The notes below the pieces were generated by a model, which had not been told where the DNA came from, made no database searches, and saw only the letters and a program-made list of their open reading frames with translations. Below are positions 5,994 through 37,906 of a stretch of 40,289 nucleotides of DNA, piece by piece. Source of the stretch: a virus (lineage: Duplodnaviria > Caudoviricetes); IMG/VR virus record IMGVR_UViG_3300005325_000002, positions 1 through 40,289 of that record, one strand, 5' to 3'. How positions within the stretch are numbered: the first letter of the stretch is position 1; the number at the start of each line of letters is the position of its first letter. A program made the translations under genes and the position numbers.

Positions 5994-7316
5994 ATGCGCA
6001 TGAATACAATTCCCCTATCTTCAATCACTCTCTCCCCCGCCCGCCAGCGCCAGGACTTCGATCCCCAGGCCCTGATGGAGCTAACCGAATCGATCCGCGA
6101 GCATGGCCTTCTCCACGCCCCCGTTCTCCGCCAGGAAGGTGACTCCTTCATCCTCGTGGCAGGTGAGCGTCGCTTGCGAGCGATTCAAGATCTTTGGGCC
6201 TTGGGCGACACGTTTAAATTCAACGATACTTCCATTCCAGAAGGAACGGTTCCTTTCGTCACCTTGGGCGAACTCGACCCAATTGCGGCGGAGGAAGCAG
6301 AACTCGAAGAAAACCTCCGCCGGCAAGATCTCACGTGGCAGGAGCTTGCATCCGCCCACGAACGACTTCACAATCTCCGCACTCGACAAGCGCAAGCGGT
6401 CGGGGAAGTTCATACCGTTGCCGACACGGCGGAAGAGCTCACCGGAAGGCGGGACGGAGGTTATCAATCCGGAATCCGAAAAGAACTCATCGTCGCGAAG
6501 AACTTGTCCAATCCCGACATAGCGAAAGCGAAGACAGTTGACGAAGCCTTTAAAATTCTGAAAAAGAAGGAAATTGGAAAACAAAACGAAGCCCTTGCGA
6601 TTTCAGTCGGGAAGACACTCACATCCGCCTCTCATTCCCTTCATCATGTTGATTGTTTATCTTGGATGCAATCCTGCCCGCCAGAAACTTTCGACATCAT
6701 CCTCACTGATCCGCCGTATGGGATGGGAGCTGACAAGTTCGGGGACGCCGGCGGAAAGCTTTCCGGAATCGAACACCACTATGATGATTCTTATGAATCC
6801 TGGCTTGCTTTGATGAAGGTCTGGTGTCCGCTCTCCTTTCGCGTAACCAAGCCACAAGCCCACTTGTATGCCTTCTGCGATTTCGACCGGTTTCATGAAC
6901 TCAAAGAAATGCTGCAGGTTGCGGGATGGTATGTCTTCCGTACCCCACTCATTCTCGTCAAGCCCGGTTCTGGTCGTGTTCCACTTCCTGAGCACGGCCC
7001 TCGCCGGCAGTATGAAATGATCCTCTACGCGATCAAGGGAAAGAAACCTGTCACTCATATCTATCCTGATGTGTTTTCAATCCAAGGTGATCCAAACGAC
7101 GGCCACGGCGCAACAAAGCCCATTTCCGTCTACACCAATCTCCTCCAGCGATCCGCTCGGCCCGGAGACAAAGTCCTCGACTCTTTTGCTGGAAGCGGCC
7201 CGATCTTCCCGGCCTGCCATATGATGAAGTGTATTGCGACGGGGCTGGAGACAAGCCTTGAGTACTACGGGATGAGTTTAAAGCGACTTCAATCAATGGA
7301 GGAGGAAGATGAATGA
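5994..7316 (+). CDS. ParB/Srx N-terminal domain fused to an amino (N6-A/N4-C) DNA methyltransferase, beta-class motif order
   Basis: LVAGERRLRA and EENLRRQDL (ParB); ILTDPPY then VLDSFAGSG (methyltransferase); start at 5994 or 6000. Confidence 0.87.
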   Translation: MRMNTIPLSSITLSPARQRQDFDPQALMELTESIREHGLLHAPVLRQEGDSFILVAGERRLRAIQDLWALGDTFKFNDTSIPEGTVPFVTLGELDPIAAEEAELEENLRRQDLTWQELASAHERLHNLRTRQAQAVGEVHTVADTAEELTGRRDGGYQSGIRKELIVAKNLSNPDIAKAKTVDEAFKILKKKEIGKQNEALAISVGKTLTSASHSLHHVDCLSWMQSCPPETFDIILTDPPYGMGADKFGDAGGKLSGIEHHYDDSYESWLALMKVWCPLSFRVTKPQAHLYAFCDFDRFHELKEMLQVAGWYVFRTPLILVKPGSGRVPLPEHGPRRQYEMILYAIKGKKPVTHIYPDVFSIQGDPNDGHGATKPISVYTNLLQRSARPGDKVLDSFAGSGPIFPACHMMKCIATGLETSLEYYGMSLKRLQSMEEEDE

Positions 7317-7920
7317 TCCGACTGGAAGAAATGTTTTCGATCCTGGAGCCAAGCTCGATGGCGGAAAAGTTCCCGCCGGTATGCTTATTGGATTTTCTCG
7401 TGCACTTGAAGCCATCAGTCGGGTTTTCGCCTTTGGAGCTAGTAAAGGTTACTGTCGAGGAGGATGGAAAGAGGTACCTGATGGAATTCTCCGTTACAGT
7501 GATGCAGCTTGGCGACACCGACTAGCTTCCGGTAATGACCCTGAATCTGGACTTCCACACTCTTGGCACGAAGCTTGGAATGTACTCGCTGTCTTAGAAT
7601 TAGAACTTGAGGAGGCACAACTTAATGACACACTTTGTAATGCCGTCCGGCCCGTGTCCGGCGAAGATAATGATCGTGGGGGAGAATCCGGGAGCGGAGG
7701 AAGTCCGTCTCAACATGCCCTTCGTCGGGACTGCCGGACGGGAGATGGATCGGATGCTGGCCGAGGCTGGGATTGCCCGCTCGTCGTGCTTTGTAACAAA
7801 TGTGGCCAGGGTTATCCCGCCGGGGGGAAATGCGACTGCGTGGATCGCGGAAAAGAAGAAAGATCGGACGCCGGCGCACAAGGAATTTCAAGGGAAGCTG
7901 ATCCTTCAACCCCTGCTTGA
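7309..7920 (+). CDS. DUF5664 (dATP/dGTP diphosphohydrolase N-terminal-like) protein with a ~98-codon extension overlapping the polymerase gene
   Basis: GAKLDGGK, FGAxKGY...W, RYSDAAWRH, DPESGLPH..H.AWN pattern in the first ~100 aa. Confidence 0.7.
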   Translation: MNDPTGRNVFDPGAKLDGGKVPAGMLIGFSRALEAISRVFAFGASKGYCRGGWKEVPDGILRYSDAAWRHRLASGNDPESGLPHSWHEAWNVLAVLELELEEAQLNDTLCNAVRPVSGEDNDRGGESGSGGSPSQHALRRDCRTGDGSDAGRGWDCPLVVLCNKCGQGYPAGGKCDCVDRGKEERSDAGAQGISREADPSTPA

Positions 7921-10000
7921 AGGAATCCAGCTCCTTACACAAGAAATCAATCTCTGTAAGCCGAACATTATCATTGCTTTCGGAAATGTGAGTTTGTGGG
8001 CGCTGACCGGAAAGTGGGGTGTGATGAAATGGCGGGGGAGCTTGCTTGAAGTCTCCTTGCCTCATTCCGTAGGCAGGCCGGTGAAAGTTATTCCAGTCGT
8101 CCATCCCGGAACCATCTTACGGCGGTGGGACTGGCGGCCTGTGGCGGTTCATGACTTGCGGAGGTGCCTTAAAGAAAGTAAGTCAGAAAAGATAACGTGT
8201 GTGGATTACAATTTTTTAATCCGCGTAAGTTTCCCTCAAGCTCTCGCAGTTCTTAATGAGTTACTCCTCCAAGTGGAAAAGGAACCAACATGGCTCGCCT
8301 GTGATATTGAAACCCGCGCCGGTCACATCGCCTGCATCGGTTTCGCATGGAGTAAGACTTCCGCCATCTGCATCCCATTCATGTGCGTCGAGCGGCCGGA
8401 AGGGTACTTCACACCTAATGAAGAGTTCGCGGTCATCACCCTCATCCGCAAGCTTTTAGTCCACCCTAACGCTAAGATCATCGGCCAGAACTTCCACTAT
8501 GACGCGCAGTACATCCACCGCCACTGGATGATCGTTCCAAACTGCGCTCAAGACACCATGATTTCCCAACATTCCTGCTTCTCCAACATGCAGAAGTCAT
8601 TGGACTTCCTTTCCAGTATGTATTGCGAGAATCACTTATATTGGAAAGATGATGGGAAAGAGTGGACGGATGATATGAACGAAGACCAGCTTTGGAACTA
8701 TAACTGCATGGACTGCGTACGCACGTTCGAGGTCGCGGAAGTCCTCCGACGGAATGTAGTTCAAATGGGACTTCAGAATGTTGATGGATTTCAGCAATCC
8801 CTATTCCGTCCCGTCCTTGAAACCATGATAATAGGGCTTCGAGTTGATAAAGCTCGCCGCGCCACCTTCGCCATGGAACTCATGGATGAGATTGCCAAGC
8901 GCGAACAATTCTTCATCGACATACTCGGACATCCTTTAAATCCTCGTTCAAACACCCAAATGCAGAAGTTATTCTACGACGATCTCGGTCAACGCCCAAT
9001 TAAAAACCACAAGACCGGCGCCGTTTCCTGTGACGATGAATCTCTACGCAAGGTAATGGAACGTGAACCAATCCTCAAGCCACTCATCAACCGAATCACT
9101 GAATATCGTTCGCTTAACGTCTTCCTCTCTACTTTTGTTTCTGCTCCTCTCGACGTGGACGACCGCATCCGCTGCTCCTTCGCAGTCACGGGCGCAGAAA
9201 CATATCGCTTCGCCTCCCGCAAAAACGCTTTCGGTTCGGGCCTCAACCTCCAAAACATCCCAAAGGGCGGTGATGAAGGTTCGGGCCTCGAACTCCCGAA
9301 CGTCCGGACACTCTTCATCCCGGACCCCGGCCACACCTTCTTCGATATTGACCTTTCTTCTGCCGACCTTCGAATCGTGGTTTGGGAGTCCGACGAACCA
9401 GAAATGAAAGCCATGCTCCGTGAAGGCCTTGACCCCTACACCGAAGTTGCAAAGGAGTTCTATCATGACCCATCCATCAACAAAAAGGATCCTCGCCGTC
9501 AGCTCTTTAAGTCTTTTTGTCACGGAACAAACTACCTTGGTACCGCCAAAGGACTTGCAGGAAGGCTTGGACTATCTGTATATGAATCAGAAAAGACTCA
9601 GACGTGGTATTTCGGTCGTTTTCCGAAGATCAAAGAATGGCAAAATAATCTCAAGGAGTCTGTCATCAAGCGTCGAATGGTTGAAAATGTCTTCGGATAT
9701 CGTTGCTATTTTTTCGACCGAATCGAAGGGACAGTTTTTAATCAAGCTGCTGCGTGGATTCCCCAATCAACAGTTGCTTGTATCATCAATCGCGGATACC
9801 GGAATATCTTTGATAATCTTAAGGAAGTCCAAGTACTCCTGCAGGTGCATGACAGCTTGGCTGGACAATTTCAAACCCATCTTGGAGATTGGGCCACGCG
9901 GAGAATAGTGGAAGAGTGTTCGATTGAACTTCCTTACCGCGATCCGCTTATCGTCCCGGTCGGGATTAAGACAAGTACAAAGTCATGGGGGGACTGTTAA
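7625..10000 (+). CDS. polA: Family A DNA polymerase with N-terminal uracil-DNA glycosylase-like domain and 3'-5' exonuclease
   Basis: GENPG..EE, PFVG.AG, HP (family-4 UDG-like); DIET, GQNFHYD, YNCMD (exonuclease); NLQNIP, DLSSADLR, R...KSFCHGTNY, QVHDS (polymerase); GGAGG RBS before ATG 7625. Confidence 0.93.
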   Translation: MTHFVMPSGPCPAKIMIVGENPGAEEVRLNMPFVGTAGREMDRMLAEAGIARSSCFVTNVARVIPPGGNATAWIAEKKKDRTPAHKEFQGKLILQPLLEGIQLLTQEINLCKPNIIIAFGNVSLWALTGKWGVMKWRGSLLEVSLPHSVGRPVKVIPVVHPGTILRRWDWRPVAVHDLRRCLKESKSEKITCVDYNFLIRVSFPQALAVLNELLLQVEKEPTWLACDIETRAGHIACIGFAWSKTSAICIPFMCVERPEGYFTPNEEFAVITLIRKLLVHPNAKIIGQNFHYDAQYIHRHWMIVPNCAQDTMISQHSCFSNMQKSLDFLSSMYCENHLYWKDDGKEWTDDMNEDQLWNYNCMDCVRTFEVAEVLRRNVVQMGLQNVDGFQQSLFRPVLETMIIGLRVDKARRATFAMELMDEIAKREQFFIDILGHPLNPRSNTQMQKLFYDDLGQRPIKNHKTGAVSCDDESLRKVMEREPILKPLINRITEYRSLNVFLSTFVSAPLDVDDRIRCSFAVTGAETYRFASRKNAFGSGLNLQNIPKGGDEGSGLELPNVRTLFIPDPGHTFFDIDLSSADLRIVVWESDEPEMKAMLREGLDPYTEVAKEFYHDPSINKKDPRRQLFKSFCHGTNYLGTAKGLAGRLGLSVYESEKTQTWYFGRFPKIKEWQNNLKESVIKRRMVENVFGYRCYFFDRIEGTVFNQAAAWIPQSTVACIINRGYRNIFDNLKEVQVLLQVHDSLAGQFQTHLGDWATRRIVEECSIELPYRDPLIVPVGIKTSTKSWGDC
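8200..8225. promoter_or_regulatory. 26-bp palindromic site, copy 2, inside polA (TGTGGATTAC-aatttt-TTAATCCGCG)
   Basis: Matches the motif; lies in the linker between the UDG and exonuclease domains. Confidence 0.6.
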
Positions 10001-11197
10001 ATGTCCCCCCGGCAGTATTCCGATTGGCTTCAAGCCTACATCCGCTATGCCTCCGTCTCCGAAGCCCCGCGTTATATGCACTTTTGGGCGGGAGTGTCGG
10101 CAATCGCGGGAGCACTTCGCCGTCGGGTATGGTTTTCAATGGGGCACTTTTCATGGGAGCCGAACTTCTATATCATTTTCGTCGCTCCGCCGGGTGTGGT
10201 CGCCAAGTCCACAACCTCCGGCATCGCAATGAACTTGTTGAAAAAAGTTCCCGGAATCAAGTTCGGGCCGAATATCGTGACATGGCCAGCGCTGGTTGAG
10301 AAGTTTGCGGAATCGCGTGAGGCTTTCGAATACAAAACTGACTTTATCGAAATGTGCAGTCTCACCCTTGAATCCTCCGAGTTTGGGAATCTCGTCGATC
10401 CACAAGACAAACGAATGATTGATCTTTTGGTTCACTTATGGGACGGTCAGCCGGGGGAATTTTCCAAGGCTACGAAATCTTCCGGCGAGGATCAGATTGT
10501 AAATCCTTGGATCAACCTCATTGCTTGCACTACCCCGGCATGGATCGCGGATAACTTCCCGGAATATATGATCGGCGGAGGGTTTACTTCCCGTTGCGTG
10601 TTCGTATATGCGGAGAAGAAGGAGCGGCTTGTCGCATATCCTTTCCTTGAAATGAAATATAATAAGGTTGAAGAGGAAACCAAACTCGTCGAAGACTTGA
10701 TTCGAATATCTGAGATGATCGGGGAGTTCACTCTCGAGGAAGATGCTCTTACATGGGGCCAGCAATGGTATGAAGAACATTGGCGGTCAAAGCCTGCGAA
10801 CCTGGATGACGAACGTTTCGGTGGATACCTCTCCCGCAAGCAGTCCCACCTTCACAAACTTGCGATGATCCTTTCCGCCAGTGAAGCTTCAACCCTTCGT
10901 ATTTCAAAGAGTAACCTAATGACCGCGAATATGATGATTTCGGACTTGGAAAAAGATATGGTGAATGTATTCTCCAAGATTGGAAAATCCTCAACCAGCG
11001 TACAGGTTGACCGTTTAATTGATTATGTCAATCGGCGAGGGGAGGCACCTTATAAAGAAGTCTATCAATTCGCGCATATGTACTTCCCTTCCGCGAGGGA
11101 TTTCGAGGATGTGATGCTTGGATGTATTAAGAGTGGACAATTGAAGTTAATACAAAAAAATGGGCAGCCGATGATTTGCGCGGTTGTCGGTGATTGA
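10001..11197 (+). CDS. DUF3987/YfjI-family P-loop helicase (replicative helicase candidate)
   Basis: Variant Walker A VAPPGVVAKSTT, Walker B ESSEFG, LWDG, GFTSR; abuts polA. Confidence 0.72.
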   Translation: MSPRQYSDWLQAYIRYASVSEAPRYMHFWAGVSAIAGALRRRVWFSMGHFSWEPNFYIIFVAPPGVVAKSTTSGIAMNLLKKVPGIKFGPNIVTWPALVEKFAESREAFEYKTDFIEMCSLTLESSEFGNLVDPQDKRMIDLLVHLWDGQPGEFSKATKSSGEDQIVNPWINLIACTTPAWIADNFPEYMIGGGFTSRCVFVYAEKKERLVAYPFLEMKYNKVEEETKLVEDLIRISEMIGEFTLEEDALTWGQQWYEEHWRSKPANLDDERFGGYLSRKQSHLHKLAMILSASEASTLRISKSNLMTANMMISDLEKDMVNVFSKIGKSSTSVQVDRLIDYVNRRGEAPYKEVYQFAHMYFPSARDFEDVMLGCIKSGQLKLIQKNGQPMICAVVGD

Positions 11198-11208
11198 AAG
11201 GAGGGGAG

Positions 11209-11496
11209 ATGAACACGAAAGAAGTTGCTGAGTGGTTACGAGAGGCTGCTGTTAGGTGTGAAGATTTGAGGGATATAATGGATGACAGGAATGAAATTTC
11301 CACATCATCCTATTATGCAGATGAAGCAAACGCTTTCAGGCAACGCGCCTCACGGGTCGAGGCCATGACTTGCGATAGGTGTGCTGACTTTGACAATCAA
11401 TTCAACGATTGCCTAGATTCGTTCGACGCTTCTTTTGAAAATGGGGCGAATATCGAGAAGTGCGGACCTAAGTTTGGTTGCAACAGGTGGAAGTAG
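11209..11496 (+). CDS. Hypothetical Cys-rich protein
   Basis: GGAGGGGAG RBS before ATG 11209; CDRC...C...C...C. Confidence 0.65.
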   Translation: MNTKEVAEWLREAAVRCEDLRDIMDDRNEISTSSYYADEANAFRQRASRVEAMTCDRCADFDNQFNDCLDSFDASFENGANIEKCGPKFGCNRWK

Positions 11497-11522
11497 AAGC
11501 CCCAAGACGGGCGGGGGGAGGG

Positions 11523-11801
11523 ATGATGGGAAAGTTTGCAAAAGTATTTGAAATTGGAGAAGAGCAACTGCTTGTCAAAACGCAACAAGACGCGGAGGGA
11601 AACCCGCAAGTTTACTGTGCGACTGAGATAGATGGGAATGAAATAGGGATATCTCCAACTTTCACTCCTAAGAGCGACAGCGATTCAGCCTTTGAATCTG
11701 CGTGGGATGCGGCAGATAAATACTTTCTTTCTGTTGATCAGCGTAAGGCTGAGGAAATAAGAGCGGGGATAGTTAGAACATATGAAACATTGTCTAGTTA
11801 A
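11523..11801 (+). CDS. Hypothetical protein
   Basis: GGAGG RBS before ATG 11523. Confidence 0.65.
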   Translation: MMGKFAKVFEIGEEQLLVKTQQDAEGNPQVYCATEIDGNEIGISPTFTPKSDSDSAFESAWDAADKYFLSVDQRKAEEIRAGIVRTYETLSS

Positions 11802-11838
11802 CTGGACCGCGAAACGGTTCGGTCAAGGGAGGGGTGAA

Positions 11839-12081
11839 ATGGCGTTGAGCATGATGCAGCGAATGTCAATCATGGATGGATACGGAAGATGTCGGTGCAG
11901 TTATTGTGGGAAATTCAGGAAAGAATCCGACTTCCCAGATCAACCGGCACACGCTTATTTCGGAGATGGGAAAAGTATATCAGGACAGATAAGCGTCTCC
12001 CCTGCATGTTCTTCTTGTTTCCAAGATGTTTCCAGGCAACAAAACCACCGAATAAACTCCAGCAAAATCAAGCAGTTTTAA
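11839..12081 (+). CDS. Hypothetical zinc-finger protein (CSYC...CSSC)
   Basis: GGAGG RBS before ATG 11839. Confidence 0.6.
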   Translation: MALSMMQRMSIMDGYGRCRCSYCGKFRKESDFPDQPAHAYFGDGKSISGQISVSPACSSCFQDVSRQQNHRINSSKIKQF

Positions 12082-12381
12082 CACCGCCTATTATAATCCA
12101 ATAGTTGGCGTTTCCAAGGTTTTTGTTATAAAATAGGCCGGTTATGGTTGAGCGGATAACTGGTAATTGTTTCCAGATTGTTTCCAGGAGGGTCAGGTGA
12201 TGATTGAACCAATGGTAGACGGAGACAGCCGATTTATTACCATTTTAAAATTGGCATTTCTTATACTGCTTTTTGCTGCCGCTATCGCTCTAGCACCTTT
12301 ATGCGTGATTTGTAGGCCGCTAGACAACCTGATATGGGGGAAGGGGAGAAATGGACGATAATGTTTCCGGATTGTTTCCAG
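12016..12381 (+). repeat. Three pairs of TGTTTCC heptamers with 11-bp period
   Basis: Copies at 12016/12027, 12168/12179 and 12362/12373. Confidence 0.6.
12200..12361 (+). CDS. Small membrane protein
   Basis: GGAGG RBS; one long hydrophobic segment. Confidence 0.5.
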   Translation: MIEPMVDGDSRFITILKLAFLILLFAAAIALAPLCVICRPLDNLIWGKGRNGR

Positions 12382-12602
12382 ATGGGATGGTACAGGTGCA
12401 AAGAAATCCAGACATGGCCGTTGATCTTTCTGATGGCCCATGGAACGGATGGTTATTCTGGAGGCATCCAGACGGGCAGTTTGTGTCAAAACGAAAGCTC
12501 GAACCCTGGGAGGTCATGCAAGTTGAAGATCAGCGCGATGAAGGAATCGTTATTGATGCTGGGCAAATACTCGGAACAAAGAGCGGTGTCCGCTATGGGT
12601 AA
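12351..12602 (+). CDS. Hypothetical protein
   Basis: GGGGAG RBS; 83 aa. Confidence 0.6.
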   Translation: MDDNVSGLFPDGMVQVQRNPDMAVDLSDGPWNGWLFWRHPDGQFVSKRKLEPWEVMQVEDQRDEGIVIDAGQILGTKSGVRYG

Positions 12603-12685
12603 TTGTTCCCAACCTTAACCCCACCCATGCTGCAATAGGGCGCATGGGGATGTCGTTTTACAAGGACGAAAATGAGGAAATATCA

Positions 12686-12928
12686 ATGAGCATGATAACT
12701 GTAGGAACCTGCGGGCTTTGTGGCGGACCGGTGCAAATTAGTTCTATGTGGGGATCTTCAATCCCACAAGAAATGAAATGCTCCAGATGCGGAGCTGTAG
12801 CCGAGAGGTCTTTCGGGCCAATCATCCCGATGCGTTCGGGTAAAAAGTCAGAAGATGAGGGGGAGATAAAAAGAGAATTGTTTTCTGGTTCTGGCCCATG
12901 CCAGTATGACGGTATGCTGGCAAAATAG
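12686..12928 (+). CDS. Hypothetical zinc-ribbon protein (CGLC...CSRC)
   Basis: GAGG RBS before ATG 12686. Confidence 0.6.
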   Translation: MSMITVGTCGLCGGPVQISSMWGSSIPQEMKCSRCGAVAERSFGPIIPMRSGKKSEDEGEIKRELFSGSGPCQYDGMLAK

Positions 12929-12942
12929 CCATGCTGCAGTAT

Positions 12943-12974
12943 CCCCAGTGCGAAGCAACCATCCCGCACTGGGG
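12943..12974. terminator. Hairpin at the convergence of the early and late arms (probable terminator)
   Basis: CCCCAGTGCG / CGCACTGGGG 10-bp perfect stem between convergent stop codons; weak U-tracts. Confidence 0.55.
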
Positions 12975-12979
12975 TTCAA

Positions 12980-14659
12980 TCACTCGGCTGGCTTGGCGAT
13001 AGCTCCGCCTAGTTTATAGCGTTGCTTGCTGACTTGGTATTCGTAGGCTCCGATATCCCACACGCCGTTTTGGGGTTTGGTTGCTCCAGCAATATCTTTT
13101 TTTATGTCTATGCCGTAGCTTGCCAGGAAGATACTATACGGTGTCGTCCCGCTCATAGTTGATCCAACGTCTTTAGCTGCGCTGCTAGAGGTTAGAGCAA
13201 AACTCGTCGGAGGGTTGACCAGCCCAGGGGCAACATCCAAACAACTCCCGCCGCCGTCGTCACATTTACCCGCCGAAACCAGTGTTGACAGTGCGGTGTG
13301 AACTACTCCGTCAAGATGTACTTTCACCGGGCTATAAAAAGCATTGTACTCTATATCTGATGCCGCTACTGATACATCATCAGTCCCGAGAATGATACTG
13401 TATGGGTTGATTCCGGTCACAGCCCCAACCCTGAGATTTGAAATAATATTCCCGACTATATCAATATCATAGTCTGCCCCGGTCATGTAATAAGAAACTC
13501 CGACCGTTGTATCATATATCGTATTATTGTAAACATACACTCTTTTGGTGCTATAAGCAAAAATTGCATAGCCAGACCTGTAGTACGATCCATCAGTATG
13601 ATTTTCAGTAGCATATTCATCCATATCATAGATGACATTGCCTATAATATACAGATTATTCGATCCGCTGCTTACGATTCCTCCTTTTGCGTCGTGTATC
13701 CTGTTGTTAATAAACCAGATATCGACAGGTGAATCATGTACGGAGACAGCGGGCCCAAAGGAATTTGTTTCTCCTGGCCAATCAGTATAGCTGTACATAT
13801 CATTGGAAGAAACAATTACATCTTTACAACCTTTTAGATCGACGGCGTTCTCTCCATCATCGTGGAATGTGTTTCCGCCGATATAAATGTTATATGGAGA
13901 AGTTGCCGTAACTCCACCAGGGTTCCCCACTTGCACAGCATCGCCGCCGTTGTGGTGATGGTGGCTATTCAGAAGCCAGATGTTTCTGGAGTAGTTTTCT
14001 GGCTTAAACGCATGTCTATCATCTTCCCCGATGTAATCATATTTTCCAATATAACTGACTTCATTGTTATACAGGACGATATGCTCGGTCCAGTTGGGGG
14101 ATGCACCATAAAAATTGACGCTTCCAGTATTCCCCAGTAAACCATTCCCCGTAATCTTTGAGTTTCTCAAGCAGATATGGTTTGGAGTATAGCCGTCCTT
14201 TGTCCGTATTTCTGGTTTAGCGACTGAGAACTGCAATCCATCAATGATGACATAAGCTGCGTTGCCCCAATACCACGCCGTGGTTATTGTCGGCAGTGCT
14301 CCGGGGGTTCCAACAAAGAAAATGGGGCTAGCCTCTGTCCCTTGGGCAGTAAACGTCCTCGCATAAGTGTGGGTTCCAGTCAACTCGACCCGACTCCCAG
14401 CGGGGATTGTTATAGGGACGGTGGCGCGTGGCGCTGTTGGGGTTCCATAAGTGCGCCCTGTGTCTGTCCCAGACTGAGGGTTGACATAATAATATCCGGT
14501 CTGCTCGGTAGTCCATGGATCAGGCCGAGATGGAACAGGCGTATCTATTGGATGAATACTCCCCCATGATGGATCAGGGATGCCTACTGGTGGGGTGTAG
14601 GCGTATGCTTGACCAGCCAATAACAGAACGATCAGAAGATTAAAAACTAACGTCATCAT
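12980..14659 (-). CDS. Right-handed parallel beta-helix (pectate lyase/depolymerase-like) protein with N-terminal signal peptide and C-terminal DIGAYEY (choice-of-anchor Q-like) end
   Basis: Repeated I.GN.I/NN.I rungs; MMTLVFNLLIVLLLAGQAYA leader; AAGGTG RBS supports start 14659 rather than 14800. Confidence 0.78.
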   Translation of the reverse strand: MMTLVFNLLIVLLLAGQAYAYTPPVGIPDPSWGSIHPIDTPVPSRPDPWTTEQTGYYYVNPQSGTDTGRTYGTPTAPRATVPITIPAGSRVELTGTHTYARTFTAQGTEASPIFFVGTPGALPTITTAWYWGNAAYVIIDGLQFSVAKPEIRTKDGYTPNHICLRNSKITGNGLLGNTGSVNFYGASPNWTEHIVLYNNEVSYIGKYDYIGEDDRHAFKPENYSRNIWLLNSHHHHNGGDAVQVGNPGGVTATSPYNIYIGGNTFHDDGENAVDLKGCKDVIVSSNDMYSYTDWPGETNSFGPAVSVHDSPVDIWFINNRIHDAKGGIVSSGSNNLYIIGNVIYDMDEYATENHTDGSYYRSGYAIFAYSTKRVYVYNNTIYDTTVGVSYYMTGADYDIDIVGNIISNLRVGAVTGINPYSIILGTDDVSVAASDIEYNAFYSPVKVHLDGVVHTALSTLVSAGKCDDGGGSCLDVAPGLVNPPTSFALTSSSAAKDVGSTMSGTTPYSIFLASYGIDIKKDIAGATKPQNGVWDIGAYEYQVSKQRYKLGGAIAKPAE

Positions 14660-15401
14660 CTTGCACCTTATCCCATACTGAGTCGAAGCAATCTGTCCCG
14701 GAGGTGTATTCACCAGCAAACACCATTTTATTGCTATACTGAGTCCTCGTACCCTCTGTCGACGACGCAAAGTTGCTCCCCGATGTGGGGCAGGTTCCAT
14801 CTATAGAAAAACTGACATCGGAATAGGCATCAGTCCCGCCTCCAGGTTGATACGACGCACACAGGGTATACCAGTTCCCTACGGTTACCGTCCCTGAGGT
14901 GTTTTCAGCCGTTGCATCCCCGAACGCCTGCACTCTCACGGTATATGTAGTGGGTGAAACATAAGTCAGGTAGATTGTCGATAGGGCGGTGGTATTGTTG
15001 AAGAACGTCATCAATGTATCTGAACCAGACGACCCACCACCATTCGCGCTGACTTTGAAAAGTCGCTTTACATAAAGCCGACCAGAAGATAGGGCTGTGT
15101 AAGACACACTCGCTGTTACATCCGTTGCCGCTCCAGCACACCCCCCAAGAAATAGCGATTGATCGCCATCCCCTGGGTTTGTGGTGTAGTCTGGGTTTGG
15201 CGTCCCAAGAACCGTAGCCCATGTTCCATCATCTCCTGCTCCGGTTTCGTACCCCGTTCCTTCAAATCCTTGATCGAGGAGATATGTTCTTGCTGGAGCC
15301 GCCCCGCCACCGCTCGCAATGGCCCCCACAAATCCAGAAGGGTTTGCCCACGCGCTGGTGCAGAACAGAACCAGGATGATTGATAGTAGGTATCTTTTCA
15401 T
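14640..15401 (-). CDS. Signal-peptide-bearing beta-sandwich (ConA/lectin-like) protein
   Basis: MKRYLLSIILVLFCTSAWA leader; Thr/Gly/Ser-rich beta-strand pattern; fold is inferred. Confidence 0.6.
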   Translation of the reverse strand: MKRYLLSIILVLFCTSAWANPSGFVGAIASGGGAAPARTYLLDQGFEGTGYETGAGDDGTWATVLGTPNPDYTTNPGDGDQSLFLGGCAGAATDVTASVSYTALSSGRLYVKRLFKVSANGGGSSGSDTLMTFFNNTTALSTIYLTYVSPTTYTVRVQAFGDATAENTSGTVTVGNWYTLCASYQPGGGTDAYSDVSFSIDGTCPTSGSNFASSTEGTRTQYSNKMVFAGEYTSGTDCFDSVWDKVQDDDVSF

Positions 15402-15402
15402 A

Positions 15403-16725
15403 TCAATCTGCTGCCCCCCCATCTGTGCTGGCCGCTGTCTCGGAATAAACCGACCACGTATCGTCAGCGGTACACATCAACGTGACTTTCGTCCCGGCTG
15501 TTGCCGCCATGTCGAGTTCGTTGTTTGCCGTCAAAGCGGTACCAGCAAACAGATTAAAATGATCCCCAGAAGCAGGGACGACTTCAATCTTTTCCGCATC
15601 TCTTGCCCACAGCAAAACAAAATCCCCGACATTAGCCGTTTCACAGTCCCACATCGTCACTTCATCCGCAGTCGTCATCTGCACAATGCTGGCATTGTGG
15701 TCGGCTGCGGTCAGGGTTTGAGCGGCTGTGTAAGAGTTGAAAACCATCTTCCCTTGGATCGTTCCGGATGTTTCGTAGTTGCCCGTTGCTGGGGGGATCG
15801 CTGCCCATGAAGTAAGGTCAGCATCATACGCTTGATAGGTATCAGCCGTTACGCTGATTACGCCAGCGGTTATATCTATGCCCGTTCCTTCGGTGATTTC
15901 GACAGCGTTATCAAGTTCCGTGGCTATGGTTTGGATCGCAGATTTGTGTGTGGTTTGCCCTGAGAGCAAAGTCCCAGTCCACGAATCCTTGACTACGACG
16001 CCGACCTGTTGGAGTGCAGCTTCTACATTGTCCGTGGTATAGAAAGTGCCAGCATCTGTAATCGCTACCTCGGATGCGGTTTGATCGTCAGTTCCCGTTC
16101 CAGCCAGATTATCAACTGCATCTGCAATTTCTTGAAGTGTATTATCAGTAGTCGCTAAATTCCCATTAAATCCGGATGCGTCAACGGTAAGGCTTGCACC
16201 GCTTCCTGTTGGAGTGAGGTAAGTATCCGTGGCAACAAACCCCATCTGCCCATACTCATCCATATTCATTAAATAAGTAATCCCTGCACCCGGAGGAGCT
16301 GCGATTGGAAGTCGCCAAGATCGGTTTGCCGCCGGAGTCCCGCCTTGAAGTGCGGTCCAATAAGAACCGGTTCCGGCATACAGTTTAATATAATTTCCAC
16401 CATCCGCCGACCCATCCAAACACGGCCCTGCGGTACAATCCCCAACAAGCAGACTCGACGCCGCAATACTCGTCCCCCAAGCACTTCCAGTCGATACCGG
16501 AACTCCTGCATCTGGCCAAGTAAAAAGTCCTGGGGTTGAAGTAGCTACTGTTGTTCCATTCCAAAAATAAAGCACTCCATCATCCGTATCCGTACAGAAT
16601 CCAGCGGTGATTGTACTACAATCCGCTTGATAAACAATCGACGTAGCGTCATCTCCCCAAAGTCCCGCATGAGCTTCCACCGCAAGGAGAATCAAAACCA
16701 AAACTAAAAACTTCATCTTTTTCAT
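15403..16725 (-). CDS. Tail-fibre-like protein with N-terminal signal peptide
   Basis: MKKMKFLVLVLILLAVEAHA leader; fibre-type segments (DAGTFYTTDNVEAALQQV, YQAYDADLT); TGATG coupling at 16725. Confidence 0.62.
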   Translation of the reverse strand: MKKMKFLVLVLILLAVEAHAGLWGDDATSIVYQADCSTITAGFCTDTDDGVLYFWNGTTVATSTPGLFTWPDAGVPVSTGSAWGTSIAASSLLVGDCTAGPCLDGSADGGNYIKLYAGTGSYWTALQGGTPAANRSWRLPIAAPPGAGITYLMNMDEYGQMGFVATDTYLTPTGSGASLTVDASGFNGNLATTDNTLQEIADAVDNLAGTGTDDQTASEVAITDAGTFYTTDNVEAALQQVGVVVKDSWTGTLLSGQTTHKSAIQTIATELDNAVEITEGTGIDITAGVISVTADTYQAYDADLTSWAAIPPATGNYETSGTIQGKMVFNSYTAAQTLTAADHNASIVQMTTADEVTMWDCETANVGDFVLLWARDAEKIEVVPASGDHFNLFAGTALTANNELDMAATAGTKVTLMCTADDTWSVYSETAASTDGGAAD

Positions 16726-17012
16726 CAGCATACCCCGCAAGTAGATGTTGTCCCGCTTCCGGCGGTACGTTGGAATTTTATAGAAACAACACCGCTATTT
16801 AGTGTATCATAATCCGCCGCCGTGACAGAACCTTTCGCCCATGCAATATAATTTGTTCCGTCAAAGGAAATACTAACAGCAACCGTATCCCCAGAAGCCG
16901 GTCTTGCCCATACCGTCGCCGGAAGTGGAGCGCCAACCATATTAAAAATCTGCGCATCTCCGTTTGTTAGGGTTGTCTGAACAAAACTTCCTGTCATTCT
17001 ATTTGCAGTCAT
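16725..17012 (-). CDS. Small beta-rich virion-type protein
   Basis: 95 aa; coupled to both neighbours in the late operon. Confidence 0.6.
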   Translation of the reverse strand: MTANRMTGSFVQTTLTNGDAQIFNMVGAPLPATVWARPASGDTVAVSISFDGTNYIAWAKGSVTAADYDTLNSGVVSIKFQRTAGSGTTSTCGVC

Positions 17013-17181
17013 TACTCTTCTCCTTCGTGAAGATTGCGATTAAACCCGCTGAAGCAATTCCAAACAGTGCAATTCCTTCAGCTTGTTCTTGTGTTAGTTG
17101 TATTCCAAAGACAGTTAAAAATGCTGTAAGCCCATACCAAGTTGACTTTTCTTTCGCTCTTGCAATTATGTATTCTTTCAT
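16999..17181 (-). CDS. Holin-like small membrane protein (two TM segments)
   Basis: RAKEKSTWYGL plus two hydrophobic helices; GAGGGG RBS before ATG 17181. Confidence 0.55.
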   Translation of the reverse strand: MKEYIIARAKEKSTWYGLTAFLTVFGIQLTQEQAEGIALFGIASAGLIAIFTKEKSNDCK

Positions 17182-17185
17182 CCCC

Positions 17186-17395
17186 TCACCAACCTTTTCC
17201 ATTTGAATTACCTTCCTCTGCATGAATAGCTGAACACCGCCCTTCGATTCGGGCAACCTTTTCCGCGAGAACTTTCTGCTCCCGTTGAACATCCTTCAAA
17301 GATTGCAGCGTCTCGCGGAGAAAAAATGCTGTGACAGAAAGTAAGATTGTAATGACTCCAATGAATAAGTTTGAAAGTGATACATCGAAGCTCAT
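17186..17395 (-). CDS. Membrane-anchored coiled-coil protein (holin/lysis-accessory-like)
   Basis: N-terminal TM segment followed by a heptad pattern. Confidence 0.5.
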   Translation of the reverse strand: MSFDVSLSNLFIGVITILLSVTAFFLRETLQSLKDVQREQKVLAEKVARIEGRCSAIHAEEGNSNGKGW

Positions 17396-17408
17396 AATCT
17401 TGGTTCCT

Positions 17409-17639
17409 TTAAGCTGAGGGTAGTTTTTGTCCGGCAACCTTTTCCATACTTTTTAATGTATGGTAATACCTTTCTTTTGAGAATACAATCACAGCATTTA
17501 AGGGGAGGCGAATATAACTTTGATCCTCGAGGACAAGGAATTGAAAGTTATCTTCAATTCCATCTCCGATGACTTTATCAAACTTCATCCATCCCCAGGT
17601 TCCTGGAATTTTAACCTTCGCAGAATAGGTATCCATCAT
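17409..17639 (-). CDS. Hypothetical protein
   Basis: ATGA coupling to the tail fibre stop; GAAGGTG RBS. Confidence 0.6.
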   Translation of the reverse strand: MMDTYSAKVKIPGTWGWMKFDKVIGDGIEDNFQFLVLEDQSYIRLPLNAVIVFSKERYYHTLKSMEKVAGQKLPSA

Positions 17640-18478
17640 TTCACCTTCATTATATACAAACAAGATAAGAATGTGGGACGATTTTCCGTGGCGGAAGGTG
17701 TTCCGGAAGTAGTACTCGGCGGATCGACTGTATGTAAATGCGAATTACCACCTCCGGTTTGGTTTGTCTGCGGAGCTTGAACTAGATTACCATCATATGC
17801 ATAAAATCCTGTTGATCCATCATTCCTTGTCATAAGGGCAAGGTTTATTGTATGCGCATGTGGAGGAATTTGGTCAATACTTAAGGTTGTAGAACCTGAA
17901 CTAAAAGATGTTATATCGACAGTATGAGTATGGCTATCAGTGTTTATGCCGCCGAGTGTTCCTCCAGCGGTTGACCCCATGAGGAAGCGGCTGTCCGTAA
18001 GGTTAGGAAGATACCTTCCCGTTCCGTTAAAAATTGGGGAGTCGGCATCATTCAAAGCCGCCCCATCACAAACATACCAACCTGAGGCGTTGAGGTAAGC
18101 GTTCGCGGCGGCAATACTATTCCCAAGAACACTTGTTATCGCCCCATTCGTTCCATTGGAAAAGTACCCACCACACCAAGCAACAATCGCACCGACTGGT
18201 GATCCTGACCCAACCGCCGCCGCGACTGCAGTGGTCATCTGACCAACCGTGGCTAAGTCACTATCTGCCGAACCGTCCGCCGAACCTGTGACTTTAAACC
18301 CACCCATCGCAAGGTTTGCAAGCATGGAAGCCTGCCCATCCCGAAGGATGGTGATAGACAAGGCTGCGGCGATGTTTTCAATGATGGTATTGAAGTCGCT
18401 CGCCAGAATGTCCGTACCTGAGACAGCAGGGTATTCGGGGGAGGGAAGGTTGTAGGTGCCACTTCCATTGAATGACAT
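17636..18478 (-). CDS. Tail fibre protein (N-terminal anchor, collar-like domain, HxH metal-binding motifs)
   Basis: PVGAIVAW, GWYVCDG, LPNLTDSRFLMG, SHTH/PHAH/SHLH, ENRP..LSC.YIMKV. Confidence 0.78.
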   Translation of the reverse strand: MSFNGSGTYNLPSPEYPAVSGTDILASDFNTIIENIAAALSITILRDGQASMLANLAMGGFKVTGSADGSADSDLATVGQMTTAVAAAVGSGSPVGAIVAWCGGYFSNGTNGAITSVLGNSIAAANAYLNASGWYVCDGAALNDADSPIFNGTGRYLPNLTDSRFLMGSTAGGTLGGINTDSHTHTVDITSFSSGSTTLSIDQIPPHAHTINLALMTRNDGSTGFYAYDGNLVQAPQTNQTGGGNSHLHTVDPPSTTSGTPSATENRPTFLSCLYIMKVK

Positions 18479-18487
18479 AGTTATTTA

Positions 18488-18513
18488 CTCCTATTAAAAA
18501 TTTTTAATTCACA
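18488..18513. promoter_or_regulatory. 26-bp palindromic site, copy 3 (CTCCTATTAA-aaattt-TTAATTCACA)
   Basis: Matches the motif; on the - strand reads TTAATAGGAGTAAATAA, identical to 3229-3245, and contains the RBS. Confidence 0.65.
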
Positions 18514-18517
18514 CAAA

Positions 18518-20560
18518 TTACTCACCCGCTTGCCCTTCTTCCGCCACCGTCTGGTCATAAGCTGTGGTAAGTATAGCCCGGATTAAGGCTTGCCGAGCTT
18601 TCGGTGTAGGACTCTTTGCAATCGCTTCGATTTGCTTCAATCCATCAGGACTTGTCACAATATCCGCAACTTGATTATAAGCTTTTGCCGTTACTTTCTC
18701 CCATACACTTCGACCTGCACGAGATGCCGTAGCAATTACGAAACTGAGAAGGTTCTCACCCGCTTGTTGTTGTAAGGCCGCCCGATCAACTGACGGCGGA
18801 ATTTTCAAATCTTTAACTGTATCAAGTGCATCGATAGTGCGGAAAAATTCCTTGGAAATAATCCGAGGGTTTAAACCCTGTTCCCGCGCCATAACCCCAA
18901 TCGCGGCTTTGACATTCGCAGTCTGCTCTTTCGTACCGAGCATTGTTTGAAGGACTTTATAGGGTTGTTGAATCTTCTCCACATCATTCGCACGTTTGAA
19001 GGTGGAGCTGACTGACTTCATGATATGCTCGCGGAGAAGTTGTCCGACTGTGTCGCCGCCGAGTTCTTTCGAAACCTTCGCAATTTCGCGAGTCTTGTCT
19101 TGATCTTTTGGGAATAGCCATCCGATTGCAGTTTCTTTTGCTGTGATCTTATCCTGTTTAACACCTCCACCCATGGAAGCGAGTTCACCGACAATACTTC
19201 GTTGAAGGGGATTAGTAGAGTTCTTCCAGTGATTGGAAGCTGCTCGTCTGGCGGCACTATAATCAGCGTCAGTAAAATCTTTTAATGTTGTTGCAATGAT
19301 TTTACTTGGAACATCTCCATAACCTTCCTTCGGAGCAACCTCATTAAAAGATTTAACAATACTATTTAAAGTACCTTTATCCATTGTCTCACCGGGTTGG
19401 AGTTCAGGAAGATACTTATTAACAAATGCTTTGATTTCTAAATCCCCTGGCGAACCTTTCCCAAGTATGTTCGAATCCTCCCCGGCGGCAAGTAAACGAT
19501 TTCGAAGTGTTTCAACCTCAAACATATCATAAGTTTCTTGGTTCACTCCAGGACGAAGGTTGGTGGCATACTTCTGCCTACCAAGTCCTTTCTCAGCCTC
19601 AATCCGTTTTGCTGCGAGTTCTTGGATATCCTGAATCGTCCCCTTCCGCCCTTCCACTCCAACCGGGAAGGTTGTGTTGATAAGTTCATCGAACATCGAG
19701 CGAGCCTTATCAGGGAGATCACGAAGATGCTGCATGAACTTTGGGCGGGCAGCGGGATTTGTAGCCGCCTGAGCCACCACGTCATCCAGCGTAGAACTCG
19801 GCCCAAGAACCTGCGAGGCAAGGTATGGAACACCTTTTTCTTCGAGAACATTTGCGAGTTCCTGTCCTCGTCGCCAGTCTGTCTCTGGAACAAACTCTGT
19901 TGCTTGCTGAATTAATCGTTTTGAGTTCGGAATGAAACTTGTTCCAAGGGCTGTCAAACCGCCACCGAGAAGTCCGCCGCCAACACGACCAAGAACACTG
20001 TTTTCGTCTTGCACAGCCTGTGCACCAAGTTCACTTCCCAATCCCGCTGTGGTTCCAATCGCAGCGTTTCGAACAGGTTGAATCATCCCTCCCGGCCCCG
20101 CCAACGCTCCAATCAACCCTTCAATTGCACTCCCTGCATACTTTCCCGAAGTTGTCTGTGGCTTACTTAATTCCCCGCCGGAAATCTTTAAAAGCCCTTC
20201 CACCATACTTGTTTGCGGCGTCATCGCCTCCGGTCCCGGCGCATCAAGCATCGCATCCATCGGCGGAAGGGATTCTTTCAGCCACTCCCCTGTTGCTGCT
20301 CGATATGCAAGCTTCGGAATCTGTTTCGCTCCAGCAATCCCCAAATCCATCAATGCAGGAGCCGCCATCAGCCCTCCGCGGACACCTTTGTCCAGAACTC
20401 TTCCCACTTCAGGGAGGACTCCTTCGGCAGGAGGGCTGAGGGAAGCGCTTGCCGGCGCTTGAGAAAGATTCGCTTTAATTGCGGAAGCAATTTGTTCGTC
20501 GGTCATTCCGTCAGGAAACTCAACATCCCCATGACCAGGAACTTCAACAATTTGTCCCAT
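18518..20560 (-). CDS. Internal virion / DNA ejection protein (large)
   Basis: Position after the nozzle and smaller core genes; N-terminal VEFPDGMTDEQI; Gly/Ala-rich segment followed by a helical body. Confidence 0.65.
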   Translation of the reverse strand: MGQIVEVPGHGDVEFPDGMTDEQIASAIKANLSQAPASASLSPPAEGVLPEVGRVLDKGVRGGLMAAPALMDLGIAGAKQIPKLAYRAATGEWLKESLPPMDAMLDAPGPEAMTPQTSMVEGLLKISGGELSKPQTTSGKYAGSAIEGLIGALAGPGGMIQPVRNAAIGTTAGLGSELGAQAVQDENSVLGRVGGGLLGGGLTALGTSFIPNSKRLIQQATEFVPETDWRRGQELANVLEEKGVPYLASQVLGPSSTLDDVVAQAATNPAARPKFMQHLRDLPDKARSMFDELINTTFPVGVEGRKGTIQDIQELAAKRIEAEKGLGRQKYATNLRPGVNQETYDMFEVETLRNRLLAAGEDSNILGKGSPGDLEIKAFVNKYLPELQPGETMDKGTLNSIVKSFNEVAPKEGYGDVPSKIIATTLKDFTDADYSAARRAASNHWKNSTNPLQRSIVGELASMGGGVKQDKITAKETAIGWLFPKDQDKTREIAKVSKELGGDTVGQLLREHIMKSVSSTFKRANDVEKIQQPYKVLQTMLGTKEQTANVKAAIGVMAREQGLNPRIISKEFFRTIDALDTVKDLKIPPSVDRAALQQQAGENLLSFVIATASRAGRSVWEKVTAKAYNQVADIVTSPDGLKQIEAIAKSPTPKARQALIRAILTTAYDQTVAEEGQAGE

Positions 20561-23442: not shown

Positions 23443-25032
23443 TTACAACAATCCGCTCGCCGGAACGATGATCAGATCCGTTGCGATCCATTTCATGTTA
23501 ATGTTCTTAGTTGAGAATTTCAACCGTAAAGATAAAGTGCTTCCGGGATAGTGATTCACCGACCGCCAAGAGTTGGTGAGAAAATCTCCAGCCCATTTTG
23601 CAGCATCCCAATGTGCTGTATCCCACAAAGCTGCATCAGTATCTGCTTGGCTAGAAACACTAACTGCGCCGCCGCTTTCATAATCAGTATCAATTCCAAT
23701 ACCGATTGCAAGATTCGAACCGCCACGAGTTACGAGCTTGAGAAGGCTGATTTGTGTGTTTGAGTTTCGAAATAAGCGATTGTAAGCTGTTTTAACTTCA
23801 ACCTCAATTCCCGCTTCATTATCCGCATACCCATCCCAAGCTTTATTAACATACCGACCGAAGGCGAAATAAAGATTACCACCAAACTCACACCAAGCAG
23901 AGGCATTTTGTCCCTTGAATCGTGACCAGGCTCCAGTGCGGGTGTTCATTACAAATTGATAAGAATAGGTGACCGCCAAACCGGAATCATACTTAATCGG
24001 AACATTAACAAGAAGCATGTCCATGGATGGAAAGAGTGTGGTACTCCACCCAAAGAGTCCCTTATAATATTCCATATAAAATTTCCAGGCTTCAGAGATC
24101 TTATCGCTAACAGCAACGGTACGATTTACGCTGGAGGAGATGAGACCTTTTGATAACGGAAACAGACCAGCTTCGGTGATGATATAAACATCCCCGCCAA
24201 CACGGCAAAAGCAATTCCGGCCAACCGGCTTAGCAAACTGAAAAACCCCGATCAAAGCAAACGTAGCGGCGGAAGCCGGATCTGTACCCTTATAAACAGC
24301 AATTTCACCTTGAGACGTTATCGTTACGAGATAGTCGTCGGAACCTTCACCAGCGTCGATTGTCCAGGAAGTTTGCGCGACGATATATCCGCCGCGAGAG
24401 AAGACTGCCCCGAGGGGAAACTCCGTCGCCGTGCCTGCGATCGCATTCAAAGGAAGATAATAGAAAGAAAGAGAGTTCTTTTTAACAAGCAGGATTCGAT
24501 TTTTGAAAATCGAACAGTTGATAACATCCGTGGAAGTGATACCAGTGATTGCGGGGGTTGAAGTTCCGTCCAAACTCACCCACGCCGTTCCATTGTACAG
24601 TAAACACTTATCAGTGCCATTACACGCCCAAAGGAAACTTCCGCCCGGCGTGGTCATGTTGACGGAATGCCAGTCACCGTTCGTACTCGCCACCGCAGCA
24701 TCGGCGTCGAGAAGTGTGTCCTCAACAGTCACGTCAAAAATCCCTTCCCCATTCGCCGCGAAGAGTTTATTTGAACCGCTGGGAGGGAAGTAAGGAAGGA
24801 AGCTTTTGATTTCTGTTTTCGTCGGCGTGGTAGCTTCCGGACAAGTCACAAAAAGATTATAACCTTTCCGTAAGACAACTTCCGTCGGGAGGGGATACAA
24901 GTTATCCATGTAGATCGCGTCATTCGCTTTCATACTGGAAACTTGATCCCGTGCGTTCCACCCTCCAGTAGGAACAGGGAATTGAATGCGCTTTCCGGGT
25001 GTCTCGAAACTTTCCCTTATGTTTTGTTTCAT
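23443..25032 (-). CDS. Tail nozzle / DNA stabilisation protein (P22 gp10-like, beta-propeller)
   Basis: PVPTGGWNARD N-terminus; size; synteny after the adaptor; ATGA coupling gives start 25032. Confidence 0.72.
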   Translation of the reverse strand: MKQNIRESFETPGKRIQFPVPTGGWNARDQVSSMKANDAIYMDNLYPLPTEVVLRKGYNLFVTCPEATTPTKTEIKSFLPYFPPSGSNKLFAANGEGIFDVTVEDTLLDADAAVASTNGDWHSVNMTTPGGSFLWACNGTDKCLLYNGTAWVSLDGTSTPAITGITSTDVINCSIFKNRILLVKKNSLSFYYLPLNAIAGTATEFPLGAVFSRGGYIVAQTSWTIDAGEGSDDYLVTITSQGEIAVYKGTDPASAATFALIGVFQFAKPVGRNCFCRVGGDVYIITEAGLFPLSKGLISSSVNRTVAVSDKISEAWKFYMEYYKGLFGWSTTLFPSMDMLLVNVPIKYDSGLAVTYSYQFVMNTRTGAWSRFKGQNASAWCEFGGNLYFAFGRYVNKAWDGYADNEAGIEVEVKTAYNRLFRNSNTQISLLKLVTRGGSNLAIGIGIDTDYESGGAVSVSSQADTDAALWDTAHWDAAKWAGDFLTNSWRSVNHYPGSTLSLRLKFSTKNINMKWIATDLIIVPASGLL

Positions 25033-37811: not shown

Positions 37812-37877
37812 AAAATGGCGAAATGGTGGACGGAAAATAATAATTCGAAAGTTTCACGCGGAAACAAGAAAAAACTA

Positions 37878-37906
37878 TTGCAAGACCCATCCATTCCGGA
37901 TACGGT
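37878..37906 (+). promoter_or_regulatory. Promoter TTGCAA-17-TACGGT
   Basis: Similar to the promoter at 4525 (TTGCAAG...GGATA...TTAA); implies start 37992 for the downstream gene. Confidence 0.5.

Follow-up and report, generated by a model that had tools for sequence, protein, structure and literature searches.

The window analysed here, the whole of the 40,289-nucleotide IMG/VR virus record IMGVR_UViG_3300005325_000002 (Caudoviricetes), contains three consecutive, coupled late genes on the minus strand, termed A, B and C in the following, all of which start with Sec-type leaders. Virion proteins of tailed phages normally assemble in the cytoplasm without signal peptides. The record is flanked by direct terminal repeats, is 100% complete according to CheckV and represents a podophage (short-tailed phage) genome of about 40 kb. 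The plus strand encodes a helicase, DNA polymerase A and a primase. On the minus strand lie the genes for terminase, portal, major capsid protein and tail proteins, together with three genes of ejection type and one for a short fibre without a leader. Behind this fibre follow, in minus-strand order and coupled stop to start, two holin-like genes, a gene for a leaderless protein of 95 amino acids (the 95-aa protein), and then A, B and C (Table 1).

An earlier note had placed signal-peptide-like N-termini at starts 16725, 15401 and 14659, based on ribosome-binding sites and coupling. All three are found in the sequence, as are the motifs DNVEAALQQV, YQAYDADLT and DIGAYEY quoted from the mature parts, and the starts are backed by gene coupling and purine-rich upstream sequence in each case. 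Specifically, the ATG of A (16725) shares bases with the stop codon of the 95-aa gene and has GGGG 9 nucleotides upstream, the ATG of B (15401) lies 1 nucleotide past the A stop, and the ATG of C (14659), preceded by AAGGT, overlaps the end of B by 20 nucleotides. A longer open reading frame (ORF) for C from 14800, overlapping B by 160 nucleotides, was rejected as lacking support.

Table 1 Features of the putatively exported cassette and its surroundings in the window.
Feature	Position	Strand	Remarks
Gene C, 559 amino acids: Sec-type leader 1-20, right-handed beta-helix, choice-of-anchor-Q-like end, short C-terminal tail	12980..14659	-	
Gene B, 253 amino acids: Sec-type leader 1-19, hydrophobic N-terminal peptide, Gly/Ala linker, beta-sandwich (candidate)	14640..15401	-	
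Gene A, 440 amino acids: Sec-type leader 1-20, mosaic fibre shaft, C-terminal knob ~325-437	15403..16725	-	
Leaderless 95-aa single jelly-roll protein coupled to A	16725..17012	-	model pLDDT (predicted local distance difference test) 94; capsid-vertex base candidate
60-aa two-helix membrane protein, holin-like	16999..17181	-	label from sequence features; without family match
Small membrane and coiled-coil protein, holin-like	17186..17395	-	label from sequence features; without family match
Ordinary leaderless short tail fibre	17636..18478	-	phrog_13989, phrog_25848 matches
Perfect 10-bp inverted repeat, 12-nucleotide loop	12943..12974	.	just after C stop; without T-run

As a crude stand-in for SignalP, a leader heuristic was applied that demands a hydrophobic core, a non-negative N-terminal region (n-region) and a small-x-small site. 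A, B and C pass, as opposed to 0 of the 48 other window genes (20 late and 28 early), among them a holin-like gene that has a hydrophobic start and fails through its negative n-region, and 0 of 87 homologues of the leaderless 95-aa protein. The features of Sec and signal peptidase I substrates, i.e. n-region, hydrophobic core and A-x-A site, are present in all three proteins. The C leader is devoid of basic residues, and an 83%-identical homologue of C (P0215) has a textbook leader. The several cysteines previously remarked upon in the mature parts number 6 in A, 4 in B and 4 in C.

The pattern is conserved far beyond the window. For the family counts, the window's own copies were left out (L002, L005, L086, L171, L197, P0001, P0098 and P0214), duplicates were merged (L001 with L172, L003 with L174, L004 with L181, and L177 with L178) and L185, a 19-residue match, was dropped. 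The A family then comprises 96 non-self homologues, related to each other so that counts overstate independence, 72 of which pass the heuristic; among the 24 that fail, 16 either show a leader on visual inspection or had their start called within one, 7 begin mid-domain and 1 is a Muricauda protein. At the 17 distinct loci with the A knob, the knob gene has a leader wherever the 5' end is intact (12/12), the next two genes have leaders wherever downstream DNA is readable (15/15), and the gene right after the knob gene has a B-like length of 180-263 amino acids at 13 of these 15. The survey of related phages suggested in the earlier note hence returns a recurring order of fibre, small exported protein and second exported protein, placed variably across phages after the portal, after the terminase or after ejection genes.

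Support independent of the heuristic is provided by the C family, in which conserved sequence begins right behind the A-x-A site, with a Y/W-x-x-P-x-GIP start in 22 of 27 aligned rows, and most rows with this start have a hydrophobic leader directly ahead. In addition, 50 of the 69 mature A-type proteins have an even number of cysteines, as do 20 of the 26 mature C-type ones, compared to 17 even versus 43 odd in the leaderless 95-aa family. The exported late module surmised earlier can therefore be described as a conserved mobile cassette, with export itself read from sequence and with either a virion or a surface role. New relative to the earlier note are the phage's own leaderless tail fibre and tail core, the probable inclusion of the 95-aa gene in the cassette, and the lack of a detected endolysin.

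Gene A encodes a mosaic protein, as its homologues share either a shaft motif (approximately residues 88-207) or the knob (residues 314-440). In the monomer model, the knob is of high confidence and the shaft poor. The knob belongs to the fold class of T4 gp9/gp10-XD1 and the Pa223 capsid-spike knob, with the Pa223 capsid spike as best match (9ny6_C; Z 12.2, root-mean-square deviation 2.2, 96 aligned residues), followed by CBA120 TSP4 (Z 11.6), a KP1 baseplate protein (Z 11.5) and the Solidus tailspike (Z 10.9). A pair of knob cysteines, Cys361 and Cys418, is conserved in 35/37 and 37/37 aligned rows, respectively. A homologues match tail-fibre PHROGs and, below cut-off, a phage head-fibre Pfam family, and from the fold matches we infer that A may form a trimeric fibre. 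The knob aligns to TSP4 residues 79-186, which we read as XD1 from the accessible part of PMC8825819, where XD1 is called a probable spacer, also seen in bacterial glycan-binding domains, and XD2 and XD3 are the docking domains. The match consequently establishes relatedness to virion fibres, but no docking site is proven by it. Complex prediction using three A knobs and mature B yielded a score of 0.18 and a mark of 0.32, which is no evidence either way.

By sequence, neither A, B nor the 95-aa protein has a family or solved-structure match, and the S74 chaperone has no match in A. The knob profile does not match the leaderless fibre of the relative MW202489, and zero knob matches occur in cultured phage records or species genomes, so that no host was found in this manner; the sole named carrier is a Desulfobulbaceae metagenome-assembled genome, through protein P0040. 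Scanning for loci with the A-type N-terminus gave one uninformative locus, and the P0100 scan gave none. A likeness of some mature starts to the T4 gp9/10 N-terminus was set aside, as Pfam gave no support.

B has one clear homologue (37% identity). Its description in the earlier note as a carbohydrate-binding beta-sandwich is echoed by language-model likeness, the sole source of this assignment: the look-alikes are mostly viral, and the lectin-like PF22237 (0.91) and PF22585 (0.90) among them are leads only. Proteins in the B slot elsewhere differ in their bodies, and most of them open with a short peptide of hydrophobic residues followed by a Gly/Ser/Ala linker. B is regarded as a candidate tip protein with a lectin-like beta-sandwich.

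C is better anchored by sequence, with its beta-helix matching PF13229 (41.4 bits, cut-off 25.9, E 1.4e-10) and tail spike family phrog_2234 (E 2.3e-8), and its end matching NF041518 at 22.7 bits, under the cut-off of 25. As a single sequence, C has no solved-structure match; its profile yields weak matches to polysaccharide epimerases, lyases and hydrolases and none to peptidoglycan enzymes. Lys276 is found in 27 of 27 aligned rows of the family and Asp214 in 23 of 27, the invariant lysine being presumably akin to that of lysine-base lyases. C is predicted to be a polysaccharide-binding or -cutting protein, and its matches assign it to no particular enzyme family. We note that a minor contig of run X3, representing a beta-helix variant from another strain, differs from the window at 41 places inside C (14066-14437).

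The gene for the 95-aa protein is probably part of the cassette as well. The fold matches of the modelled protein are middling (YomS Z 8.6, XepA Z 8.2, and also capsid cement and turret protein), and Foldseek returned no match at E<=0.001. The family, 113 matches minus 26 that are longer than 250 amino acids, contains the 87 homologues mentioned above. Of the 9 distinct loci shown, 7 (two of them near-copies) have the homologue behind a portal or head gene. The proteins encoded next are leaderless and fibre-like, and in four of them the N-terminus carries repeated aromatic motifs. At L188:5168, L189:4761, L190:8264 and L191:8204, the genes after the 95-aa homologues begin with repeated Pro-Phe/Trp-x-Gly-like motifs, one of them comprising only 36 amino acids. 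A search of the 41 capsid relatives of the window phage with the 95-aa profile, weak and run without a positive control, gave no match.

Within this clade, the trio is sporadic. The N-terminal anchor of the short tail fibre is common to 34 of 41 capsid relatives, whereas a long leader-bearing gene within 4.6 kb after the fibre is present in only 2 of the 19 relatives read, and MW202489 is without the cassette. This distribution, as well as the retention of an own leaderless tail fibre, marks the trio as accessory. Three capsid relatives, L218 (G022), L212 (G026) and L210 (G027), have other genes with leaders behind the fibre or the lysis genes, which suggests that such genes were gained separately.

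The role of the exported proteins is best approached through complete genomes that carry the knob. In three such phages (G042, G044 and G045), 17 of 19 long late proteins of fibre composition, i.e. T/S/G/A-rich and K/R/E-poor, pass the leader heuristic and one more has a leader by eye, the single leaderless one being a 254-aa protein encoded after the capsid gene. The late operon of G044 ends at the largest ejection-type gene with no fibre behind, and in G046 (73% complete) an exported fibre directly follows the ejection genes, although leaderless 241-aa and 132-aa proteins, weakly matched to tail families, lie upstream. As a phage needs receptor-binding parts on its particle, the exported proteins are the obvious candidates in G042, G044 and G045. 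The simplest reading for these complete carriers is that the proteins are exported and attached late, and by extension this may apply to the window cassette.

Several further observations were made in the carriers. In L003, one N-terminal motif occurs both with and without a leader in the same phage (E 1e-4, small search). In G042, leaders are also found on the gene after the capsid protein, on the second head-tail adaptor (phrog_399) and on the gene in the hub slot (L221:10634-11881, L221:9084-9758 and L221:5830-9084), the first adaptor being leaderless; the hub-slot protein is not tied to the hub by sequence. In G044, two leader-bearing genes lie directly before the fibre, encoding a 119-aa beta-rich protein (L167:7801-8160) and a 71-aa peptide with alternating leucines behind its leader (L167:8160-8375), a pair that, judged by its sequence features, may represent an exported base and plug similar to those of the gene transfer agent RcGTA. 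No family match was obtained for the small genes upstream of other trios, this pair included.

On balance, we favour that A, B and C form a mobile exported cassette, the products of which join the particle at lysis as an accessory sugar-binding appendage. The three proteins would be sent through the host Sec channel, their leaders cleaved at the A-x-A sites and the mature parts disulfide-bonded in the periplasm, a separate compartment making oxidative folding possible. A would form a trimeric fibre, the freed N-terminal peptide of B would plug into the A knob, and C would add a polysaccharide-cutting head via its terminal tag. The freed N-terminus of A would dock on the leaderless 95-aa jelly-roll protein, probably on the capsid vertices, and the appendage would be added to the particle, itself built in the cytoplasm, once lysis breaches the inner membrane. 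Its task could then be to grip or clear the host's capsule or biofilm matrix, with the ordinary tail fibre acting afterwards. Among the three options offered in the earlier note, a virion appendage added at or after release thus fits best, considering folds and complete genomes, a secreted or surface role being less probable.

We attach somewhat less than even chances to a broader proposal, namely that particle building is divided between two compartments in many tailed phages, with head and core tail made in the cytoplasm and a kit of exported fibre, tip lectin and enzyme processed and locked by disulfides in the periplasm and snapped on at lysis. In the window phage, a capsid-vertex base made in the cytoplasm would receive the exported fibre. 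In relatives, the kit would be the only adsorption gear, and in G042 it would include a capsid decoration-type protein, the second adaptor and the hub-slot protein.

A number of observations weigh against the appendage. With a leaderless fibre and tail core of its own, the phage can do without the trio for adsorption. A lipobox, implying membrane tethering, is present in 4 of 96 A homologues and in two L004 genes. Among the relatives of C are secreted proteins of cellular origin that bear PKD or other bacterial domains, and C ends in the choice-of-anchor-Q-like stretch. The A knob matches the probable spacer XD1, the known docking domains being XD2 and XD3, as far as these are described in the part of the source consulted. 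The mature N-terminus of A is without the repeated aromatic motif and resembles only the partner of the L186 homologue, weakly. The best of the middling 95-aa fold matches are lysis-cassette proteins with a capsid role that is hypothetical in the accessible part of PMC6834076. Finally, no endolysin was found in the complete window genome by family scans or tblastn, a point in favour of a lysis role. Since C relatives include cellular secreted proteins, C may have been taken from the host secretome.

Some of these points lead to the alternative that the trio is exported but never joins the particle, forming instead an adhesin and matrix-degrading complex displayed on or released from the infected cell, comparable to surface fibres of bacteria and serving to mask the surface or to clear biofilm for the escaping progeny, which we consider unlikely overall and yet the most serious competitor. 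It would account for the lipobox variants of A, the cellular secreted relatives of C and the phage keeping its own leaderless fibre, and has a precedent in the signal-peptide-bearing MAT fibres on the cell surface of Bdellovibrio, as far as described in the accessible part of PMC10769870. In contrast, complete knob phages have almost no leaderless fibre-like protein, the exported fibre of G046 occupies the slot right after the ejection genes, the closest folds of the A knob are virion parts, and a leaderless jelly-roll gene is coupled to A. Moreover, no integrase was found in Pfam and PHROG scans of the window ORFs, perhaps leaving little time for surface display. As a lipobox would tether them, lipid-anchored fibres suit the cell surface unless clipped; it is speculation that the lipobox homologues are membrane-tethered precursors clipped by a protease. 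In P0006, P0019, P0041, P0079, L004:1823-3124 and L004:6788-10357, the lipobox is followed by a short, often basic linker before a mature-type start.

It is improbable that the leaders only tether the parts to the inner membrane, or keep them inactive, with assembly staying cytoplasmic. This would ease the case of G042, where leaders on the second adaptor and hub-slot gene imply an export of DNA-sealing parts that is difficult to reconcile with textbook assembly, and it agrees with the C leader having no basic residue. However, conserved A-x-A sites stand directly before the conserved mature start, mature proteins show an even-cysteine bias, leaders interchange with lipobox leaders, and the outer face of the membrane is where signal peptidase acts.

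Slightly more doubtful still is that the cassette constitutes an exit module replacing a missing endolysin, where C would attack envelope polysaccharide from the periplasm and the 95-aa protein would resemble XepA/YomS, its best fold matches and lysis-cassette proteins themselves. An endolysin was indeed detected in the complete window genome neither by Pfam and PHROG scans of 69 ORFs nor by tblastn using 13 endolysin-like proteins, and no spanin was recognisable in the same scans despite the two holin-like genes (16999-17395). The cassette follows these genes; in the corresponding region, an endolysin-like gene, recognised by its motifs, is present in 13 of 19 capsid relatives. On the other hand, L003 and L004 carry both the trio and an endolysin-like gene, relatives without the trio are also without an endolysin near the fibre (6 of 19, and MW202489, where none is annotated), a fibre and a tip protein make little sense for lysis, and the profile matches of C are not peptidoglycan enzymes. 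An artefact is very improbable, be it hydrophobic starts that arose by chance, misplaced start codons or a chimeric assembly: although the heuristic is a crude one and A, B and C each have longer in-frame starts, none of the other genes or control homologues pass, the leaders are conserved across unrelated phages, and one contig of run X1, possibly a source of the window DNA, spans the region, covering 10000-20000 of the window with zero differences.

With regard to the surroundings, the inverted repeat behind C sits where late and early transcription converge, and promoter matches in the window are at chance level. A gene similar to that of the 60-aa membrane protein is present in the relatives L208 and L216. 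DNA identical to the window (L171) lies on a metagenome contig of 62,313 bases, longer than the 40-kb genome, perhaps due to a concatemer, an overlap or flanking host DNA. Matching DNA is also present in groundwater metagenome runs, from which the window may originate, and no RNA dataset is among the listed holders of window DNA. Just before the terminase, a leaderless 221-aa gene without family match (32972-33637), which is resembled by the gene at L003:11900-12502, possibly encodes another decoration protein. The PHROG 5107 label 'amidase' on 23443-25029 is likely wrong, as position and the MW202489 annotation ('stabilization protein') point to a tail hub. Other genes encode DNA polymerase A fused to a uracil-DNA-glycosylase domain (7607-10000), a ParB-methyltransferase fusion (5994-7316), a RyR-domain protein (5136-5504) and a dATP/dGTP diphosphohydrolase (7309-7920), the last with no neighbouring purZ match in the family scan. 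Two early genes (34656-35162 and 37815-38519) have alike C-terminal halves by eye and are apparent paralogues.

In the textbook view, tailed phages assemble wholly in the cytoplasm from leaderless parts. If the proposed appendage is real, virion maturation gains a second compartment with disulfide bonding and other periplasmic processing, the phage life cycle comes to involve the export machinery of the host, and many 'secreted hypothetical proteins' of uncultured phages are receptor-binding parts. The window offers a compact test case, with one leaderless base, three exported parts and the normal tail fibre as internal control in the same genome.

A search of titles and abstract starts, mainly of open-access literature, found no paper on exported or signal-peptide-bearing virion fibres. 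The T4 antiholin RI is a phage protein with a cleavable leader and is not a virion part (PMC8385771), and the tip proteins in the accessible part of PMC12309495 are without leaders. The comparisons below likewise refer to the accessible parts of the sources. Among known systems, the capsid spike gp52 of Pa223 (PDB 9ny6; bioRxiv 10.1101/2025.06.11.659172) is likewise an accessory trimeric spike of a podophage beside a normal tail fibre, is proposed to aid adsorption, and has the C-terminal knob that is the best fold match of the A knob, at 12% identity. It differs in that it is modelled from residue 2, with no signal peptide mentioned and no tip or enzyme partner described in that part, and in that its own N-terminus binds the capsid three-fold directly. 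The head spike of RcGTA (PMC7296036), consisting of the pentameric base Rcc01079 and the fibre Rcc01080, binds capsule through a head appendage and has the same arrangement of a small jelly-roll gene followed by a fibre gene as the 95-aa gene and A. A repeated-leucine peptide plugs the RcGTA fibre into its pentameric base, recalling the repeated N-terminal motifs after 95-aa homologues. In contrast, mature A has no five-fold repeated hydrophobic peptide, and the RcGTA fibre is leaderless and binds by residues 2-10. Rcc01079 has no sequence match to the 95-aa protein and is not among its 50 listed fold matches, which does not exclude kinship.

The branched receptor-binding proteins, i.e. CBA120 TSP4 with the XD domains of T4 gp10, and KP32 gp37-gp38 (PMC8825819, PMC13352976), share the XD1 fold of the A knob, and the short peptide of B takes the position of their docking peptide. 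Docking there occurs on XD2/XD3, whereas the XD1 of A is terminal, and the available part of the KP32 paper (PMC13352976) does not mention signal peptides. YomS and XepA (PDB 6i5o, 6i56; PMC6834076), which the 95-aa protein matches best by fold, form pentamers, and their genes neighbour lysis genes; they differ by an identity of 10-11%, vertex binding that is hypothetical, and no exported fibre partner described in that part of the source. The MAT fibres of Bdellovibrio bacteriovorus (PMC10769870) are likewise mosaic, phage-like and trimeric, with signal peptides and swappable tips. They are, however, encoded by cellular genes, and all 21 share a beta-rich domain of about 130 amino acids after the leader, whereas the mature N-termini of the A family vary. 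Each part of the window cassette is of a known kind, and it is the leaders, together with the route they imply, that are new.

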